A stretch of 35,286 nt of DNA, taken from positions 1 to 35,286 of IMG/VR virus record IMGVR_UViG_2606217105_000003. One strand, 5' to 3'. Source of the stretch: a virus (lineage: Duplodnaviria; Heunggongvirae; Uroviricota; Caudoviricetes). The stretch's first letter is position 1; every line of letters starts with the position of its first letter. Position numbers and translations under genes: made by a program. The notes under the pieces were generated by a model, which saw only the letters and a program-made list of their open reading frames with translations, did not search any database and was not told the origin of the DNA. This document shows positions 1,677 through 35,032 of the stretch, one piece after another.

Positions 1677-2288
1677 TCAGCGGGCCTGCTGCTTTTTAGT
1701 TGTCAGGCTCTTGGACTGTTCATGGCGTAAAGGATGAGTGGTATCACACTCTCTCGCCTCGTTATCTGCAAAAGCCTGCTCCTCGGGCGTTCTGGGCTGG
1801 ATTCCCAGGATTTTCTCTTTCACTACGCGATCCATTTGTAGTAAGCGAATATTATCTTCGTCAAGGAGAAAAAGTAGTGTTTCTATCCCTTTGCGAGCAA
1901 GCACCTGGAATAACGCTTCTTTCTCGCTATCAGACAAAAAGCGGATCAGCGATAGGATTTTATCATCTAAATCTGAATGAGGCGGCACTAAACCGTCTTG
2001 AGTTCTTTTTATGTTCATTTCTGGTTCTTTTCCCTCTCCGGTTTGAAGCCATTCAAGGCTGACCCCTTCACACTGCGCTATCTTTTCTAACAGAGTTTTT
2101 CTTGGTACTGGAGAGAGGTCTTTACGTTTGTAATAGTTCTGTAACGTATTGATGTTGATTCCCCACGCTTTCGCAGCTTCATTTCTCGAACGATAGCGAT
2201 CTACTAGTTTAAAAATTCTATTGATAACAGGTTCTTTTGAATCAGGAGCAAAAGAACCATTGTGTTCTTTTTGAGTCTCACGTTTCAT
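1677..2288 (-). CDS. Prophage repressor (c-like), HTH DNA-binding protein
   Basis: Leftmost gene, divergent from ner-A-B. ATG at 2288 gives MKRETQKEH...; the track ORF extends upstream only through a TTG. Probable HTH segment EAAKAWGININTLQNYYKR. Sequence unlike the Mu c repressor as I recall it. Confidence 0.6.
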   Translation of the reverse strand: MKRETQKEHNGSFAPDSKEPVINRIFKLVDRYRSRNEAAKAWGININTLQNYYKRKDLSPVPRKTLLEKIAQCEGVSLEWLQTGEGKEPEMNIKRTQDGLVPPHSDLDDKILSLIRFLSDSEKEALFQVLARKGIETLLFLLDEDNIRLLQMDRVVKEKILGIQPRTPEEQAFADNEARECDTTHPLRHEQSKSLTTKKQQAR

Positions 2289-2439
2289 TTGCTTATCCAA
2301 TTGAATTAAAAGACAAAAAGTGCAGACACATAAAAAACACAAAAGAACATTTGACAAGTTCTTTTTGTGTTCTTATTCTTTGTCCGAGTGGATAACCGCG
2401 CGGTTATCCGCACGGATAACTTTTTAGGATAGTGGAATC
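2289..2439. promoter_or_regulatory. Operator and early promoter region between repressor and ner
   Basis: Consensus -35 TTGACA (about 2351-2356) with TATTCT about 17 bp downstream. Perfect 20-bp palindrome GGATAACCGCGCGGTTATCC (about 2390-2409) at the predicted transcript start, plus a third GGATAAC copy at about 2414-2420. Position matches the Mu operator/enhancer region. Confidence 0.55.
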
Positions 2440-6617: not shown

Positions 6618-7142
6618 ATGGCTAGACCAGTAAAACGAATCAAGAACGCCGCAGCGGCTTATGTTCCACAGTCCCGCGATGCAGTGATGTGTGATATTCG
6701 CCGGATTGGTGACCTGCAACGCGAAGCGGCACGACTTGAAACGGAAATGAATGACGCTATCGCTGAAATTACTGAGAAATACGCCTCACAGATTACGCCG
6801 CTTAAAACCAGCATTGAAACCCTTTCAAAAGGCGTTCAGGGATGGTGTGAAGCGAACCGTGACGAACTGACGAACGGCGGTAAGGTGAAGACGGCAAATC
6901 TGGTAACCGGCGATGTGTCATGGCGTCAGCGCCCACCATCAGTAAATATTCGCGGTGTGGATGCGGTGATGGAAACACTGGAGCGTCTTGGCCTGCAACG
7001 CTTTATTCGCACGAAACAGGAAATCAACAAGGAAGCGATTTTACTGGAACCGAAAGCGGTCGCAGGTGTTGCCGGAATTACAGTTAAATCAGGCATTGAA
7101 GATTTTTCTATTATTCCGTTTGAACAGGAAGCCGGTATTTAA
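6618..7142 (+). CDS. gam: Gam, host-nuclease inhibitor (DNA end-binding, Ku-like)
   Basis: 174 aa; MARPVKRIKNAAAAYVPQSRDAV...GIEDFSIIPFEQEAGI closely matches Mu Gam as recalled. Confidence 0.85.
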   Translation: MARPVKRIKNAAAAYVPQSRDAVMCDIRRIGDLQREAARLETEMNDAIAEITEKYASQITPLKTSIETLSKGVQGWCEANRDELTNGGKVKTANLVTGDVSWRQRPPSVNIRGVDAVMETLERLGLQRFIRTKQEINKEAILLEPKAVAGVAGITVKSGIEDFSIIPFEQEAGI

Positions 7143-7240
7143 TATCACCATTAATATTTAATTAGTTCACTTTCTTTTAATTATGGCGCGATGCGTCAGG
7201 GGATTGCTCGCGCCTGAAACAGATTACTAAGGAATAAAAA

Positions 7241-7780
7241 ATGGTTGATGCAAAAGTTCTGAACGGTGTCAGCACATTATTACGGGCTTACGGGCGTCTG
7301 ACCTGTGGCGTTCTGGCTGAAAAAATGAATATGCCACCTTCCTCAATGGTGTATTTCCTGCGTGATGCGGTTGATGCCGGAGTTCTCACTGAAAGCAACG
7401 GATTTTATGACGTTCCGCGCCCTCGTCAGACGCCGCCAGTAAGACGAAACGCAACGGAGCAACCCGCTGTTGATGATGCTAAATGGTGCACGTTCCGTCG
7501 TTCGTTGCCCTGGCTGGAAAGCAACGCCATTCCGGCACTGGCAAAAGAATTTGCGACAGGCGTACTGACCTGCGAGTCGGTTCACATCGTTGCAGAAGTG
7601 GATGACGAGATGTGCAAACAGGGAATGCCTCGTTTTGCGATGGCGCATATCGATTTACGGCTGGGGCGTTTTATTTGCAGTTTAAGCGGCTGGAATATCA
7701 CCGACCATGTGGTGCGTTATCTCATTCTTGATTATTCACCGGTTCCGGCGACAACACAGGAAGTCAGCGAGCATGGTTAA
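7241..7780 (+). CDS. Hypothetical early-region protein
   Basis: 179 aa; ATG preceded by AAGGAATAAAAA; no recognised family. Confidence 0.5.
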   Translation: MVDAKVLNGVSTLLRAYGRLTCGVLAEKMNMPPSSMVYFLRDAVDAGVLTESNGFYDVPRPRQTPPVRRNATEQPAVDDAKWCTFRRSLPWLESNAIPALAKEFATGVLTCESVHIVAEVDDEMCKQGMPRFAMAHIDLRLGRFICSLSGWNITDHVVRYLILDYSPVPATTQEVSEHG

Positions 7781-7955
7781 GTCAATTGGCTTTGTCCTGC
7801 TGGTTGGCACCTGCGGGAATGATGCCTGCGATGCCATCCCGGTAACGGAAAAAATCTGGCCCACAGAGCAGGCCTGTATGCAGGTGATGGAGCGCATACA
7901 AAAACGTTATCCCAGTGAAATCTTTTATTGCGAAGAGGTATTACGAAATGAATAA
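7773..7955 (+). CDS. Small Cys-rich hypothetical protein
   Basis: 60 aa from ATG overlapping the upstream stop (ATGGTTAA); hydrophobic N-terminus VLLVGTCGNDAC; seven cysteines in 60 aa. Confidence 0.35.
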   Translation: MVKSIGFVLLVGTCGNDACDAIPVTEKIWPTEQACMQVMERIQKRYPSEIFYCEEVLRNE

Positions 7956-8337
7956 CGCAGAGAAAAATGAAATTAAATCCACATCCGCCAGCACCAGAAA
8001 ACATCTTTATGATTTTTATGTTGCCTATAACCAGTGGTTAAAAAATGGTGCACCAGAAACAGAGGGTGAAATATTTGTTCAATATTCAGGATTATGTGCA
8101 AATGCTTGTCGTTATTTTGACGAAATCGGAGTGGATACCGAAGATATATTAGAACAATTACGTGCAGATTTTATCGCGAACGAGTTGGATGAATTATTAC
8201 CTTTCAATGAAAGTAGAGCGCACTATCATGAGGAATGCAGACTTGGCAGATGTCACCTGAATTCTGCTCGTGTGGCATGGGTCGAAAAACACTGCATTAA
8301 GGAGATGGGACATAATGAGCCGCACATCCCTGATTAA
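7948..8337 (+). CDS. Hypothetical protein, AT-rich (moron-like)
   Basis: 129 aa from ATG after GAGGT; visibly AT-rich relative to neighbours; no recognised family. Confidence 0.4.
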   Translation: MNNAEKNEIKSTSASTRKHLYDFYVAYNQWLKNGAPETEGEIFVQYSGLCANACRYFDEIGVDTEDILEQLRADFIANELDELLPFNESRAHYHEECRLGRCHLNSARVAWVEKHCIKEMGHNEPHIPD

Positions 8338-8866
8338 ATTAATTCATGTTGCCCGTCGGGAGTTGCAACTCGACGATGACACTTACCGAGCTTTTCTGGT
8401 GCAGTGCACGGGCAAAACCAGTTGCCGCGAGCTGTCCGTTGCACAACTGGAACAAGTGCTCGATGCCATGAAAAAGCGCGGTTTTAAGAAGCAGAAAAAA
8501 CATCCCCGCCGTCGCTTTAAGGGGCATGTCACACCACGCGAGAAGATTTACAAAATCTGGCAGCAGATGTTCCTTGATGGTTTCGTTTCCGATATCAGCG
8601 ACGCCGCGCTGGACAAATACGTTGAGCGCCTGACGGCCAGACGTAATGGCGGTCAGGGGGTTTCCACACTGGCCTGGTGTCACGGGGAATCGTTGCAGGT
8701 TGTGCTCGAAACGCTCAAACAGTGGCATATGCGCTGCATCCGTGAAGCCTTTGCCCGACATGGTGTGCCTTTACCTGTGAGCGAAACCGGTCGGGAGCTG
8801 CGCGGCTATGATGCACTGACCAGTGCGTATGCCCGCGCACGAAACAGCGGGAGAATTGCTGTATGA
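8315..8866 (+). CDS. gemA: GemA-like regulatory protein (Mu gene 16 family)
   Basis: 183 aa from ATG after GGAGATGGGACATA; sits immediately before mor as gemA does in Mu. Confidence 0.65.
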   Translation: MSRTSLIKLIHVARRELQLDDDTYRAFLVQCTGKTSCRELSVAQLEQVLDAMKKRGFKKQKKHPRRRFKGHVTPREKIYKIWQQMFLDGFVSDISDAALDKYVERLTARRNGGQGVSTLAWCHGESLQVVLETLKQWHMRCIREAFARHGVPLPVSETGRELRGYDALTSAYARARNSGRIAV

Positions 8867-9273
8867 AACAGATGAAAGAGCAGGATTTATTCGAAGACTT
8901 CCGGGACGACACCGTTCTGGAATATCTTCACGATTATCAGGAAAAATATGTTTATCCGGCGCTACTTTCAGAGCTGAATGCTCTGTTGCGACAGGAACTG
9001 ATAAGGCTTGGGGTTAACCCGGTCTATTCCCTTGAGTTGGTAGTGGCGATTTGTAATCATATCGGTGGGATTCAGGTATATGTTCCTAAAGGGAAAATAC
9101 TGGAAAATCTTATCAGAGACATGCGCATCTGGCGTGATTTTGATGGGAAAAACGTAGCGGAACTGGTGCAGCGTTACAAAGTGACATACAAAACGGTATA
9201 TCAAGCTATCAAAAGAATGCGAAGGCTGGAGCGTGGAAAATATCAAATGCAACTGTTTAAGGATGAGTCATGA
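8863..9273 (+). CDS. mor: Mor/C-family transcriptional activator
   Basis: 136 aa; acidic N-terminus, conserved-looking core LELVVAICNHIGGIQVYVPKG and C-terminal HTH-like YKTVYQAIKRMRR; position after gemA. Confidence 0.6.
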   Translation: MKQMKEQDLFEDFRDDTVLEYLHDYQEKYVYPALLSELNALLRQELIRLGVNPVYSLELVVAICNHIGGIQVYVPKGKILENLIRDMRIWRDFDGKNVAELVQRYKVTYKTVYQAIKRMRRLERGKYQMQLFKDES

Positions 9274-9749
9274 AATACTTTCCTCTTATACTTTTACTGA
9301 GCGTATTTTGCGCTAATGCGGCAAAGTTGCCAGCTGAAGATGTCATCAAAAAACGTCTGACAGAAAAAGATTTCATTGCACTAAATAGCTGGATGCCTCT
9401 TAAGGGAGGCGATTCTATTAAGAACGGTGGAACTGAAACTGCTCACAGCAAATTCGGGGTATTTACGATCAATAATAAAGTCGTCAGCTCAAGGACGACT
9501 GTAAAGGATTTTGAAAACAATCCTTCAGGTGTGTTGTCTTCCTTTGTAGCATGCTCGCGGGTTGCAGAGTCAGCAATTGGTGAACTAACAGAGAAGCAGC
9601 AGAAACGAATTATTGACATGGTAGTTTCAGCTACAAAAGTTGAAGGGTATGGGTTAACTGACGTGATACAGGGTTTTCTCATGCAAACCAAATTTCTCAA
9701 GATGGGTAACGATATGGTAATAGATTGCTCCATCAAAGGAGATGAGTAG
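9270..9749 (+). CDS. Predicted secreted/periplasmic protein of unknown function (moron)
   Basis: 159 aa; N-terminal signal peptide MKYFPLILLLSVFCANA; AT-rich; followed by its own intrinsic terminator. Confidence 0.55.
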   Translation: MKYFPLILLLSVFCANAAKLPAEDVIKKRLTEKDFIALNSWMPLKGGDSIKNGGTETAHSKFGVFTINNKVVSSRTTVKDFENNPSGVLSSFVACSRVAESAIGELTEKQQKRIIDMVVSATKVEGYGLTDVIQGFLMQTKFLKMGNDMVIDCSIKGDE

Positions 9750-31311: not shown

Positions 31312-31860
31312 ATGATGCACTTAAAAAATCTTACGGCACAAAACCCTAAAACAATTGAGCAATACCAGCTGGCGCGACAGCATAAATTTTTATTGTGGCT
31401 GTTCTCCGATGATGGTCAGGAATGGCACGAAGCCCAGGAAAAATTTCAGCCAGACACTCTGAAAGTTATTTATGTTGAAACTGGCGAAGTGGTCTGGGTT
31501 GGAAAATACATCACCTCAATCTGCCCGGAAAATAAAAGCGTGATTGAGCTACCGGATATTACCGCCAATCGTCGCATTGATGCGTCGGGTTACTGGTTCT
31601 ACCGCAATGATGAATTTGTTTTTGACTACAAACTTAAAGCGGAAGATGAGCGTGATGCACTGTTAAAACAGGTCAGCATCGTGACCAGTGAATGGGAAAA
31701 AGACCTGCTGCTTGGATTAATCAGCGACGAAGAGAGGGAGAAGCTGAAATCGTACCGCATTTACGCGAAATCGCTGCGGGCAATGGATTTCAGCGCCATC
31801 ACAGATAAAGCCACATATAACGCCATCAACTGGCCGGAGCATCCTGATGCCGCAGCTTAA
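31312..31860 (+). CDS. Tail fibre assembly chaperone (Tfa, Mu U-like)
   Basis: 182 aa; immediately after the fibre gene. Confidence 0.7.
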   Translation: MMHLKNLTAQNPKTIEQYQLARQHKFLLWLFSDDGQEWHEAQEKFQPDTLKVIYVETGEVVWVGKYITSICPENKSVIELPDITANRRIDASGYWFYRNDEFVFDYKLKAEDERDALLKQVSIVTSEWEKDLLLGLISDEEREKLKSYRIYAKSLRAMDFSAITDKATYNAINWPEHPDAAA

Positions 31861-33664
31861 AGGTATAATTACATCCCCTGTGGGAGAACCGCTGAGCGGA
31901 GCAACAATAACCCTGACCTCACTACACAATCAACCCGGGATCCTGAGAGGTGTTTACAGTCACGTAACCACTCTGAGCGGTGAATATGATTTCCCCGTGC
32001 TGCCCGGAGTATATAGTGTTCGTCTGACACACAGTTCACAGCGCCTTGCAGAAATCGGGGTCATTCGGGTCTATATGGATTCGCGCGATGGTTCACTTAA
32101 TGATTTTCTGGGAGCAACTGAAATTGACTTACGACCAGAATCTTTGCGCAGATTCGAAGAACTGGCAGACAAGGTGCAGGAAAATGCAGATACGGCGGCA
32201 TCATCATCCCAACAAGCAGTAAAGATTCTGGAAGCTATTCAAAACATAGCCGGGAATATATCCGGTCTGCGTTACGAAAATTTTACTGACATACTCAGCC
32301 GTTGCACGACAGCCATGCTGAAACTGGAACAACCCGAGGTTGTTGATACATCAATATCTTTAAAAATAAAAGAAAATATCGATTTTAATTATGTCGGTGA
32401 AGTTAACGGATATTGCGATATTTCTGAACCAGAAAAGTATAAAGTCGAAATGTATGCTTATACAACCGGAGAGTATTTTAACGGCGACGCTAATTTGAAT
32501 AGTGACGGAACTTTCTATTTCAGACGTTGCTGGACGGGAGCAAAACAGTTTCGTCTTATTCGGATTGAGGATAATGCGTGGATCACAACGCTGGAGTTTC
32601 CACTGCTCATTCGTAGCTACTGGATGCCGGAGGACGCAGACCCCGAAGTGATCAGGGTGATGAAAGATCGGTGTTACACGTATGACCAGGCGCTGGCAGC
32701 ACTGGCGTTGATGGTTCAGCGACATGAGGCTGTAGAAAGATACGTTGCGGGCTTGTGTGCGCTTGTTGATGAAAACGGTGGAGTAAAGTTTTTTGTTAAC
32801 AGGCTGTCGGCCATGTCACCGCGTACCTATTACCGCCTGGGGAATGCGGCATGGGTTTATTATGCTTTGGCCTTTTATCTGGAGAAATATCCGGACGGAG
32901 CGCAGGTAAATATTGTTCGGGAAAAGTTGTTATCCGGCATTGTCTGGCTTGATTCTTTCCTTGTGACAACAGAAGGTGACCTGAGAGAAGGTTTATATAA
33001 AGGCGGCCTTGGTCGTTATGTAAATGGCGAATTTGACGCCAGTTTTGTTGCTGAATGGTGCGCACTGGAGCACAACGTAGATATCTGGTTTTTGTTTGAA
33101 CTGATGGGGCGGCTGGGATTTGATGGTTTCACCAAACGTGCAGAAAAACTGGCGCAAAGCATCATCAGGGGGATGTGGGTGGAAGAAGAGGGACGATTCC
33201 GTCAGGGGGTGCATCCAACACACTATGACAACGCGGCAGCACTGGATCAATCTTCCTGGGGAGGATTGTTTATAGCCAATATAGATACCGGGAAAGCAGC
33301 AAGATGTCGTAAGTACATGGGGCGTTTTTTATTTGGCACGCGGGAAACAACAGGTTATACACCGTATCACCCTGACTACGGTTACAGTGGTCACAGTCGC
33401 GGCGTGTGGGTGGAAGGAACTGCGGGCGTGGCACTGTTTGAGCGCAAACTGGGTAACGAGCTGAATGCAGTGAATCTCATTGCTGCAATGGCCCCGCTTT
33501 TTAATAAGTTTGGTTACAGAGATTCATGTGATGATCCAACCTATGATGTGCTACCTCCGTGGCCATCAACAACAAACACAGCCTGGATAATCCTGACGCT
33601 AAAACCAGAAAATTTCTGGTTAGTGGATTCACCTGAAATGGATGTTGGTATGATTCGGTACTGA
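31847..33664 (+). CDS. Chimeric tail-fibre-like protein: lambda Stf-type N-terminal anchor fused to a globular enzyme-like C-terminal domain
   Basis: 605 aa; start overlaps the Tfa stop. N-terminal ~130 aa matches the lambda side-tail-fibre N-terminus as recalled (motifs YSV, LNDFL, RPExLRRxE). C-terminal ~400 aa is Trp/Tyr-rich without fibre repeats. An AT-rich linker lies at about 32300-32520. Confidence 0.55.
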   Translation: MPQLKGIITSPVGEPLSGATITLTSLHNQPGILRGVYSHVTTLSGEYDFPVLPGVYSVRLTHSSQRLAEIGVIRVYMDSRDGSLNDFLGATEIDLRPESLRRFEELADKVQENADTAASSSQQAVKILEAIQNIAGNISGLRYENFTDILSRCTTAMLKLEQPEVVDTSISLKIKENIDFNYVGEVNGYCDISEPEKYKVEMYAYTTGEYFNGDANLNSDGTFYFRRCWTGAKQFRLIRIEDNAWITTLEFPLLIRSYWMPEDADPEVIRVMKDRCYTYDQALAALALMVQRHEAVERYVAGLCALVDENGGVKFFVNRLSAMSPRTYYRLGNAAWVYYALAFYLEKYPDGAQVNIVREKLLSGIVWLDSFLVTTEGDLREGLYKGGLGRYVNGEFDASFVAEWCALEHNVDIWFLFELMGRLGFDGFTKRAEKLAQSIIRGMWVEEEGRFRQGVHPTHYDNAAALDQSSWGGLFIANIDTGKAARCRKYMGRFLFGTRETTGYTPYHPDYGYSGHSRGVWVEGTAGVALFERKLGNELNAVNLIAAMAPLFNKFGYRDSCDDPTYDVLPPWPSTTNTAWIILTLKPENFWLVDSPEMDVGMIRY

Positions 33665-34669: not shown

Positions 34670-34768
34670 TTTGTATCAAATAATTTTCCGTAATGCCGTT
34701 TTGGGTGGTATCAAAAAAAATCCAAAACGGTATCAAATAATTTCGCGCGCTTTACGAAAGTGGTGACA
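34665..34768. repeat. Right end (attR-like) with three GGTATCAAA copies
   Basis: TTGTATCAAA (about 34671-34680), GGTATCAAA (about 34707-34715 and 34729-34737), inverse orientation to the left-end repeats; terminus ...GTGACA. Confidence 0.6.
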
Positions 34769-35032
34769 GTGAAGCTGGGCGATGGTTATGAACAGCGTCG
34801 TGCGGCGGGACTGAATAACCAGTTGTCGACTTACAGCGTGACGATACGTGTTCGTAAATGTGAACACCCATCTTTAAAAGCCTTTCTGGAACGGCACGGT
34901 GGCGTCCGCGCATTTCAGTGGACGCCACCTTATGACTGGAAACCGATTAGGGTGGTTTGTCGTAAATGGTCGGCAAGCGTGGGGGCGCTGTGGGTAGCCA
35001 TAACGGCAGATTTTGAACAGGTCGTGGCATAG
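34769..35032 (+). pseudogene. Lambdoid minor tail protein M, C-terminal part resuming after the insertion
   Basis: VKLGDGYEQRRAAGLNNQLSTYSV...ADFEQVVA aligns with lambda M from VRFGDGYSQRAPAGLNANLKTYSV... to its end; the two fragments together equal lambda M length (109 aa). Confidence 0.7.

Follow-up and report, generated by a model that had tools for sequence, protein, structure and literature searches.

A conserved gp11 gene and two exchangeable cassettes between gam and gemA in a Mu-type prophage

Three tightly coupled open reading frames (ORFs) lie between gam and gemA in the Mu-type transposable prophage of IMG/VR virus record IMGVR_UViG_2606217105_000003 (Caudoviricetes); positions 1 to 35,286 of that record, the whole stretch of DNA that was analysed, are referred to here as the window. 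The first frame, ORF1, is the orthologue of Mu gp11, and it is followed by two cassettes, ORF2 and ORF3, that relatives exchange for other genes. We give a probability of about 55% to the overall reading that a conserved gp11 is followed here by two exchangeable cassettes, whose cargo would be cytoplasmic host-takeover or counter-defence factors of the lytic phase. An earlier note on this DNA, made from the letters alone, had taken all three frames for an accessory cluster, a plausible site for acquired cargo, and had recognized no family among them. The first part of that claim holds for ORF2 and ORF3, which occupy a mosaic slot, are replaced in relatives and, in the case of ORF3, have a foreign composition. 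It does not hold for ORF1, which is a conserved Mu early gene of ordinary composition, the very case that the earlier note had named as counting against its reading. The second part falls for all three, as ORF1 matches PF25754 and phrog_1949, ORF2 phrog_16556, and ORF3 phrog_6418 and phrog_2510.

The gene order in the window is a repressor on the minus strand and then, on the plus strand, ner, transposase A, B, several small ORFs, gam, ORF1-3, gemA, mor and a GH108 endolysin. The three coding sequences also appear in the RefSeq annotation of near-identical E. coli prophages, where their products are called hypothetical proteins. Lengths below are in amino acids (aa) and nucleotides (nt).

1677-2357, minus strand: repressor.
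6618-7142, plus strand: gam, the left flank of the slot, encoding the host-nuclease inhibitor Gam (Pfam Phage_Mu_Gam, E 8.6e-43; colinear with Mu gam, 88% nt identity).
7143-7240, plus strand: spacer between gam and gp11, which contains a G+C-rich hairpin and the ribosome-binding site of gp11 and in relatives is a second place of insertion.
7241-7780, plus strand: ORF1, 179 aa, orthologue of Mu gp11 (PF25754, phrog_1949, 86% aa identity).
7748/7749: left breakpoint of the slot, some 30 nt short of the gp11 stop codon; homology with Mu, SfMu and E. coli E300082 extends only to here.
7773-7955, plus strand: ORF2, 60 aa, with four invariant Cys; an independent cassette (phrog_16556).
About 7950: internal breakpoint at the ORF2/ORF3 junction, from alignments.
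7948-8337, plus strand: ORF3, 129 aa, AT-rich, with an N4 gp3-like domain (phrog_6418/phrog_2510).
8307-8312: right edge of the slot, shortly before the gemA ATG, where homology with Mu, SfMu, RIVM and ETEC1734 resumes.
8315-8866, plus strand: gemA, the right flank of the slot (Pfam GemA, E 9.2e-33; 81% aa identity with Mu GemA).

Mu, SfMu and four E. coli prophages were aligned with the window to place the three breakpoints. On the left, nucleotide homology with Mu is unbroken from gam through the spacer and gp11 up to 7749. Between gp11 and gemA, Mu itself carries gp12, gp13, gp14 and an antisense gp15. ORF2 and ORF3 showed no similarity to the Mu genes they replace by BLASTP, and hhalign probabilities against gp12, gp13 and gp14 were below 1%, which rules out that the two are distant homologues of those genes. 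The slot of the window also has no antisense gp15-like gene. What it shares with the gp12-gp15 region of Mu and with the slots of D108, SfMu and E. coli Mu-like elements is the place, the small and translationally coupled genes, their non-essential look and the variability of the contents.

This variability is best seen among E. coli genomes, 93 of 5,426 complete ones matching some part of the gp11-gemA stretch. The comparison with the same slot in other Mu-like prophages, which the earlier note had proposed, returned at least five different fillings:

Arrangement 1: gp11/ORF2/ORF3/gemA, as in this window (10-12 genomes).
Arrangement 2: gp11/ORF2/gp14-like/gp15-like (antisense)/gemA.
Arrangement 3: gp11/ORF2/SfMu-gp14-like/gemA.
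Arrangement 4: gp11/ORF3/gemA, with a 36-nt remnant of ORF2 kept.
Arrangement 5: the Mu arrangement.

Among the 49 E. coli genomes with a match to ORF2 or ORF3, about 37 carry ORF2 by itself, 2 carry ORF3 by itself and 10 carry the two together. The two are found apart far more often than together, and therefore do not form an obligate pair. ORF2 occurs without ORF3 in the RIVM, ETEC1734 and SE11 prophages, the last of which has no gp11 and carries ORF2 amid four other small ORFs and a DUF2513 gene. Thus ORF2 and ORF3 are two independently exchangeable cassettes in a recombination hot spot, standing in for Mu gp12-gp15 without being orthologous to them. The slot as a whole is a typical phage hypervariable accessory region, and what it displays is ordinary accessory-gene mosaicism.

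The junctions are informative at both ends of ORF3. Its last 14 or so codons, ending in the tail GHNEPHIPD, also end an unrelated cassette in ETEC1734; the C-terminal tail of ORF3 is a shared junction sequence that overlaps gemA and is disordered in the model. At the other end, several unrelated slot cassettes open with the same ATGAATAA(C/T) start, in which the stop codon of the preceding gene is embedded. This start was seen at 7948 of the window and at four positions in other loci (L001, 4830; L002, 4879 and 5184; L007, 2211), and the products begin with MNN, or with MNK in L007. A short shared start junction of this kind could guide cassette exchange.

The coordinates bear out the coupling of three frames of 179, 60 and 129 aa described in the earlier note. 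ORF1 and ORF2 overlap by 8 nt, as do ORF2 and ORF3, both in the form ATGnnTAA, and the gemA ATG at 8315 leaves a 23-nt overlap between ORF3 and gemA. Through these start/stop overlaps the cassettes are stitched into the operon and translationally coupled. A consensus scan found no plus-strand promoter-like or terminator-like site inside the three-ORF cluster, and Rfam returned no RNA family in the window; ORF1-3 are therefore read as part of a long early transcript. The interval is the 3′ part of the repressor-controlled early operon, with the cassettes co-transcribed with gam and gemA. One terminator-like hairpin with a T-run does lie inside ORF2 on the minus strand (7874-7858). It is probably fortuitous, the count of such sites in the region being that expected by chance.

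The evidence that ORF1 belongs to the fixed part of this operon is as follows. It shares 86% aa identity over 176 aa with Mu gp11; both genes lie immediately downstream of gam, in the same gene order, and the two proteins are colinear and carry the same domain. The Gp11_C family (PF25754) scores 120.2 bits against ORF1, above the curated cut-off of 27, and phrog_1949 matches with E 1.3e-99. The last 10 or so codons differ from those of Mu because the left breakpoint of the slot falls inside the 3′ end of the gene. ORF1 consists of an N-terminal winged-helix/helix-turn-helix (HTH)-like segment, a Pro-rich linker and the Gp11_C domain at residues 90-167; the winged-helix/HTH matches in the N-terminal 50 residues are weak (E 0.16-0.3). 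In a tblastn search of 50,697 phage records, gp11 was found in Mu, D108, SfMu, Yersinia Mu-like phages and the Mu-like inserts of Shiga toxin (Stx) phages, and nowhere else among those records; a gp11-based scan of genome contigs gave no relative. ORF1 is thus a genus-conserved Muvirus early gene of ordinary composition rather than cargo. Literature searches on Mu gp11 and the Mu early region returned no functional data.

The spacer upstream of gp11 deserves comment. It contains a hairpin at 7185-7214 with a 7-bp stem (GGCGCGA/TCGCGCC) and no T-run, with a folding energy of -26 kcal/mol (z = -3.0; none of 200 shuffles folds as well), and the hairpin is conserved in Mu. In SfMu a DUF5420 gene is inserted just past it, at 7222/7230, and in E. 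coli RM9088 an IS66-family element lies just before it, at about 7078-7090. In view of these two insertions beside the hairpin, the spacer may serve for RNA processing or be a further point of insertion.

In base composition the three frames differ. The GC content falls from 0.513 in ORF1 to 0.470 in ORF2 and 0.390 in ORF3, against 0.543 in gemA and 0.535 over the whole window, so that the last frame is indeed markedly AT-rich compared with its neighbours. The third-position GC content (GC3) of ORF3 is 0.323, and only 1.05% of all 390-nt segments reach its AT-richness; the others that do lie in the repressor/operator region (1917-2523) and at 32091-32600. ORF3 is extreme in composition, yet it is not the sole low-GC early gene, as mor (0.426) and an ORF at 9270-9749 (0.406) are AT-rich too. 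The latter, a 159-aa frame directly after mor, bears a signal-like sequence (MKYFPLILLLSVFCANA) at its N-terminus and matches nothing in Pfam; in Mu this place is occupied by the small ORFs E18-E20, and it is therefore another variable slot. The ratios of nonsynonymous to synonymous substitution rates (dN/dS), taken pairwise against sister prophages, were 0.16 for ORF1, 0.24-0.39 for ORF2 and 0.30 for ORF3. All three are therefore maintained genes under purifying selection. These ratios, together with the intact frames, the hundreds of relatives with invariant residues and the confident fold predictions, leave very little room for the idea that the cassettes are decaying or non-functional filler, for which speak the missing functional assignment and the frameshifted ORF2 copies in some related prophages (P0016-P0018).

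ORF3 offers the wider view of what a cassette may bring. It matches phrog_6418 (E 1.5e-42) and phrog_2510 (E 1e-30) over a whole domain of about 100 aa, and a full HMMER scan over 1.84 billion representatives yielded 674 relatives (E <= 1e-3). The conserved unit is this domain, residues 18-118 or so of ORF3; it corresponds to no Pfam family, and a relaxed Pfam scan of 109 family members showed no consistent weak one. Coliphage N4 gp3 is a member (BLASTP 35% identity, E 5e-17; hhalign probability 99.5% against the family profile). It is the third gene from the left end of the N4 genome, at 1.2 kb, inside the annotated gp1-gp14 block before the RNA polymerase II (RNAPII) gene gp15. We take this block, gp3 included, to be the early region transcribed by the virion RNA polymerase (vRNAP). 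N4 early transcription is treated in general, without mention of gp3, in the relevant parts of one published account (PMC4496689), and a literature search on N4 gp3 and its relatives found no paper that assigns a function.

The family is not confined to N4. By tblastn, relatives lie 0.3-6.5 kb from the record start in N4-like Achromobacter phages (at 2.4-3.7 kb in these) and Rhizobium phages; phi92 gp010 is a relative at 3.3 kb, and phAPEC8-like genomes hold two to four family paralogues each. In temperate phages the family belongs to early or replication-linked moron regions. The relatives in IMG/VR prophages stand before GemA and Mor in Mu-like ones, after gpA in P2-like ones, and in lambdoid ones after replication genes (DnaC-like, DUF1627, DUF977), beside Hok and a Mom-like gene. 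ORF3 has in common with the N4 gp3 family (phi92 gp010 and the phAPEC8-like paralogues included) the domain, its invariant residues and the early-gene status. It differs from N4 gp3 in a 17-aa N-terminal extension, in the junction-derived C-terminal tail and in residing in a temperate transposable phage.

Within the domain, the 109-member alignment shows W30, G48, C50 (109/109), P85 and F86 to be invariant and N105 (108), R108 (108), E96 (97), N52, N87 and H103 (91 each) to be nearly so; ORF3 has the five invariant residues as well as N105 and R108. An invariant Gly-Leu-Cys stands at the N-terminus of helix 2 of the predicted all-alpha, five-helix fold, which AlphaFold2 (AF2) models with a predicted local distance difference test score (pLDDT) of 88.5 and with residues 122-129 disordered. 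Matches to family members in BFVD reach TM-scores of 0.74 (query length) and 0.88 (target length), and among solved structures no relative of the fold was found. The family is mildly acidic (median isoelectric point 5.3; ORF3 5.1). A Zn(Cys)4 or Cys3His site made of C50, C97, C102 and H103 was considered and rejected as a family feature, since C97 is found in only 28 of 109 members and C102 in 69. Polar residues are unusually conserved around the invariant Cys, which suggests a ligand-binding or catalytic site rather than a fast-evolving protein-protein inhibitor.

The domain architectures were counted among the top 148 representatives of the family. The domain stands alone in 104 of them, occurs in two or three tandem copies in 12 and carries extensions in 32, and the fusion partners include a C-terminal Lar domain (P0038), a dATP/dGTP pyrophosphohydrolase with DUF7415 (P0031) and DUF551 (L038).

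ORF2 is a different kind of protein. It contains five Cys and a hydrophobic N-terminus, as the earlier note had it, and matches phrog_16556 (E 1.2e-28). A profile search gave a family of 279 clusters, all 56-69 aa long and all annotated ‘hypothetical’, across the Enterobacterales (Escherichia, Salmonella, Yersinia, Serratia, Pantoea, Erwinia, Edwardsiella, Tatumella and Hafnia). In an alignment of 85 relatives F7, C14, C19, A21, P23, C35 and C53 are invariant, four Cys in all, and two Asp are conserved also; the most conserved block reads IGFVLLVS.CG.DACDALPV. The phage members, from Yersinia vB_YenM phages, Aeromonas pAEv1818 and Hafnia phages, and the chromosomal ones have the four Cys, the CG.DACDA.PV motif and the length of ORF2. 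The phage members differ from it in their place, which is the int-proximal, left early region near Lar, methyltransferases, RecT/RecE and xis. A further difference is that in several genera (Yersinia, Serratia, Pantoea, Erwinia, Mixta) family genes are chromosomal; in Yersinia and Mixta (L010-L016) they stand alone among ordinary genes, and therefore the family is not phage-restricted. In Yersinia such a gene sits between two EamA transporter genes, and in Mixta calida among hypothetical small genes.

AF2 predicts a compact beta-beta-alpha-beta fold for ORF2 (pLDDT 92.9). Residues 2-14 are modelled as a strand of the sheet with pLDDT above 90 (mean 94 over residues 1-10), and the hydrophobic stretch, 8-9 residues long, forms a buried strand. 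In this model, the hydrophobic N-terminus is a core beta-strand and not a lipoprotein signal. Tried as a bacterial lipoprotein with a signal peptidase II (SPase II) signal, by the lipobox [LVI][ASTVI][GAS]C after a charged n-region and an h-region, ORF2 was rejected. Its own sequence at the site is VGTC; of the 85 relatives, 19 have Pro at -1, 76 carry neither Lys nor Arg ahead of the first Cys, and in 55 just 11 residues precede it. No upstream in-frame start was present in the phage homologues.

The ORF2 fold recalls several other small proteins. AcrIC8 (PDB 8g9s) appears to resemble it in fold only, at 8% identity and in a fold that is common; it lacks the Cys pattern of ORF2, and no anti-CRISPR-associated regulator lies near ORF2. 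The likeness to other tiny beta-beta-alpha-beta phage inhibitors, such as T7 Gp2, and to ClpS is likewise one of fold only.

Searches for known functional families gave little. PADLOC-DB v2 defence models had no match at E <= 1 for any of ORF1-3, NCBIfam nothing, and sequence searches against PDB chains nothing meaningful; library and structure searches yielded no match to a known defence or anti-defence family for the three, and family profile searches no toxin-family match for ORF2 or ORF3. Lar, the restriction alleviation protein of the Rac prophage (PF14354), is fused to the ORF3 family member mentioned above and lies near ORF2 relatives in Yersinia phages, whereas neither ORF2 nor ORF3 itself has a Pfam match to it. 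ORF1-3 thus seem to fall outside every characterised defence, anti-defence, toxin or lipoprotein family, and the families that they do match are all of unknown function.

How, then, would the cassettes serve the phage? We propose that ORF2 and ORF3 are made only in lytic growth, after infection or induction, and that each is a small cytoplasmic protein that binds or modifies some component of the host. They would serve host takeover or counter-defence and not the protection of the lysogen. The occurrence of the ORF3 family in the left-end early blocks of virulent phages, its paralogue expansion and tandem copies, and its fusions favour such a role over lysogen protection. The place of the family in early regions of virulent phages such as N4 (gp3) and the Lar fusion of one relative lend some support to counter-defence in particular. 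A precedent for small accessory genes in the Mu early operon is gnarl2, the host-modifying gene E6/Mup07 of Mu (Silas et al., bioRxiv 10.1101/2023.04.06.535777), which itself lies upstream of gam and is unrelated in sequence to ORF2 and ORF3.

For ORF3, the Cys-centred polar patch could be the ligand-binding or catalytic site, and the target could be one conserved across Proteobacteria. A target of such breadth would account for the retention of these residues in phages that infect alpha-, beta- and gamma-proteobacteria, as well as for the tandem duplications and the fusions. ORF2 could be a mini-protein that depends on a metal or on redox chemistry and that was captured from enterobacterial chromosomes or is shared with them. 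Going further, the N4 gp3-like domain might represent a new, widespread class of early effectors with an unsolved fold, common to virulent (N4, phi92, phAPEC8) and temperate (Mu, lambda-like, P2-like) phages, that binds or modifies a Proteobacteria-wide target, for instance a molecule of immune signalling or a core factor of the host, with ORF2 as a second, metal-dependent effector that mimics a chromosomal small protein. We regard this extended form as tentative and more doubtful than the overall reading.

An alternative is that gp11, ORF2 and ORF3 are helpers of phage development, acting in Mu transposition or replication, in the handling of DNA ends or in the early-to-middle switch, and do not act against host immunity. 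Their operon position between gam and gemA/mor would suit such a role, and so would the Muvirus-wide presence of gp11, its dN/dS of 0.16 and its weak HTH matches, as well as the location of ORF3 relatives behind replication genes (DnaC-like, gpA) in prophages of the lambdoid and P2-like types. Sister prophages without ORF2 and/or ORF3, however, indicate that the two are dispensable for the lineage, and the ORF3 family spans unrelated replication strategies (N4, phi92, phAPEC8, P2, lambda, Mu). We consider this alternative rather unlikely.

It is less probable still that the cargo kills the host or arrests its growth, either as a kil-like toxin or with ORF2 and ORF3 as a toxin-antitoxin pair. 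Small Mu early proteins can be toxic (Kil, from annotation), ORF2 combines many Cys with a hydrophobic N-terminus, and Hok genes adjoin some ORF3 relatives in lambdoid prophages. A toxin-antitoxin pair is at odds with the independent occurrence of its two members (about 37, 2 and 10 of 49, as given above). Further points against toxic cargo are the shortness of the ORF2 hydrophobic stretch and its burial as a strand in the model, the blank toxin-family searches and the stand-alone chromosomal relatives of ORF2.

Cargo that protects the lysogen, by superinfection exclusion or defence, would have ORF2 as, for example, a small lipoprotein of the outer membrane, comparable to T5 Llp or Cor. The ORF2-family consensus LLVSAC does resemble a lipobox, and variable slots of prophages often hold defence genes. 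Nevertheless, ORF2 and ORF3 lie inside a repressed early operon with no promoter of their own, and ORF3 relatives are common in strictly virulent phages, which, together with the blank PADLOC search, speaks against a service to the lysogen. The VGTC of ORF2 and the N-termini of its relatives are ill suited to lipidation, the AF2 model places residues 2-14 in the sheet, and the phage homologues offer no upstream start. The idea of exclusion cargo, raised in the earlier note, is thereby weakened, and we hold it to be very improbable.

Irrespective of the function, the analysis clarifies how the early region of a Mu-type phage is built: a fixed gp11 is followed by a cassette slot with sharp breakpoints that sister prophages fill differently. 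What is new here are the exact cassette boundaries, the tie between an anonymous gene of E. coli prophages and N4 gp3, and the confident fold predicted for a large family without a solved relative. As things stand, this is ordinary phage mosaicism with two candidate effectors. Should the proposed role as a counter-defence or host-takeover effector be true, the function could be carried over to hundreds of early genes of coliphages of the therapeutic type (N4-like, phi92-like, phAPEC8-like).

Two further observations concern the prophage outside the slot. First, the Mu-like prophage is itself inserted in a lambdoid prophage, parts of which are seen at 76-1344 and 34760-35032 of the window. The window opens inside the gene for a tape-measure protein of the lambda type, of which it holds the C-terminal part (76-1272; Tape_meas_lam_C), and the minor tail protein M gene is split, with its first 20 or so codons at 1276-1344 and the rest at 34760-35029 (Pfam Phage_min_tail positions 21-108 of 108). 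The annotations of the Stx-converting phages LC727881 and LC727895 include comparable ‘inserted Mu-like phage’ regions. Second, a 605-aa ORF at 31847-33664, with a lambda-type ‘Prophage tail fibre N-terminal’ domain, follows the tail-fibre/assembly genes and precedes mom, in the place of the invertible G segment and gin of Mu. Part of it (32091-32600) is as AT-rich as ORF3, and this tail-fibre-type ORF may be a second acquired module.

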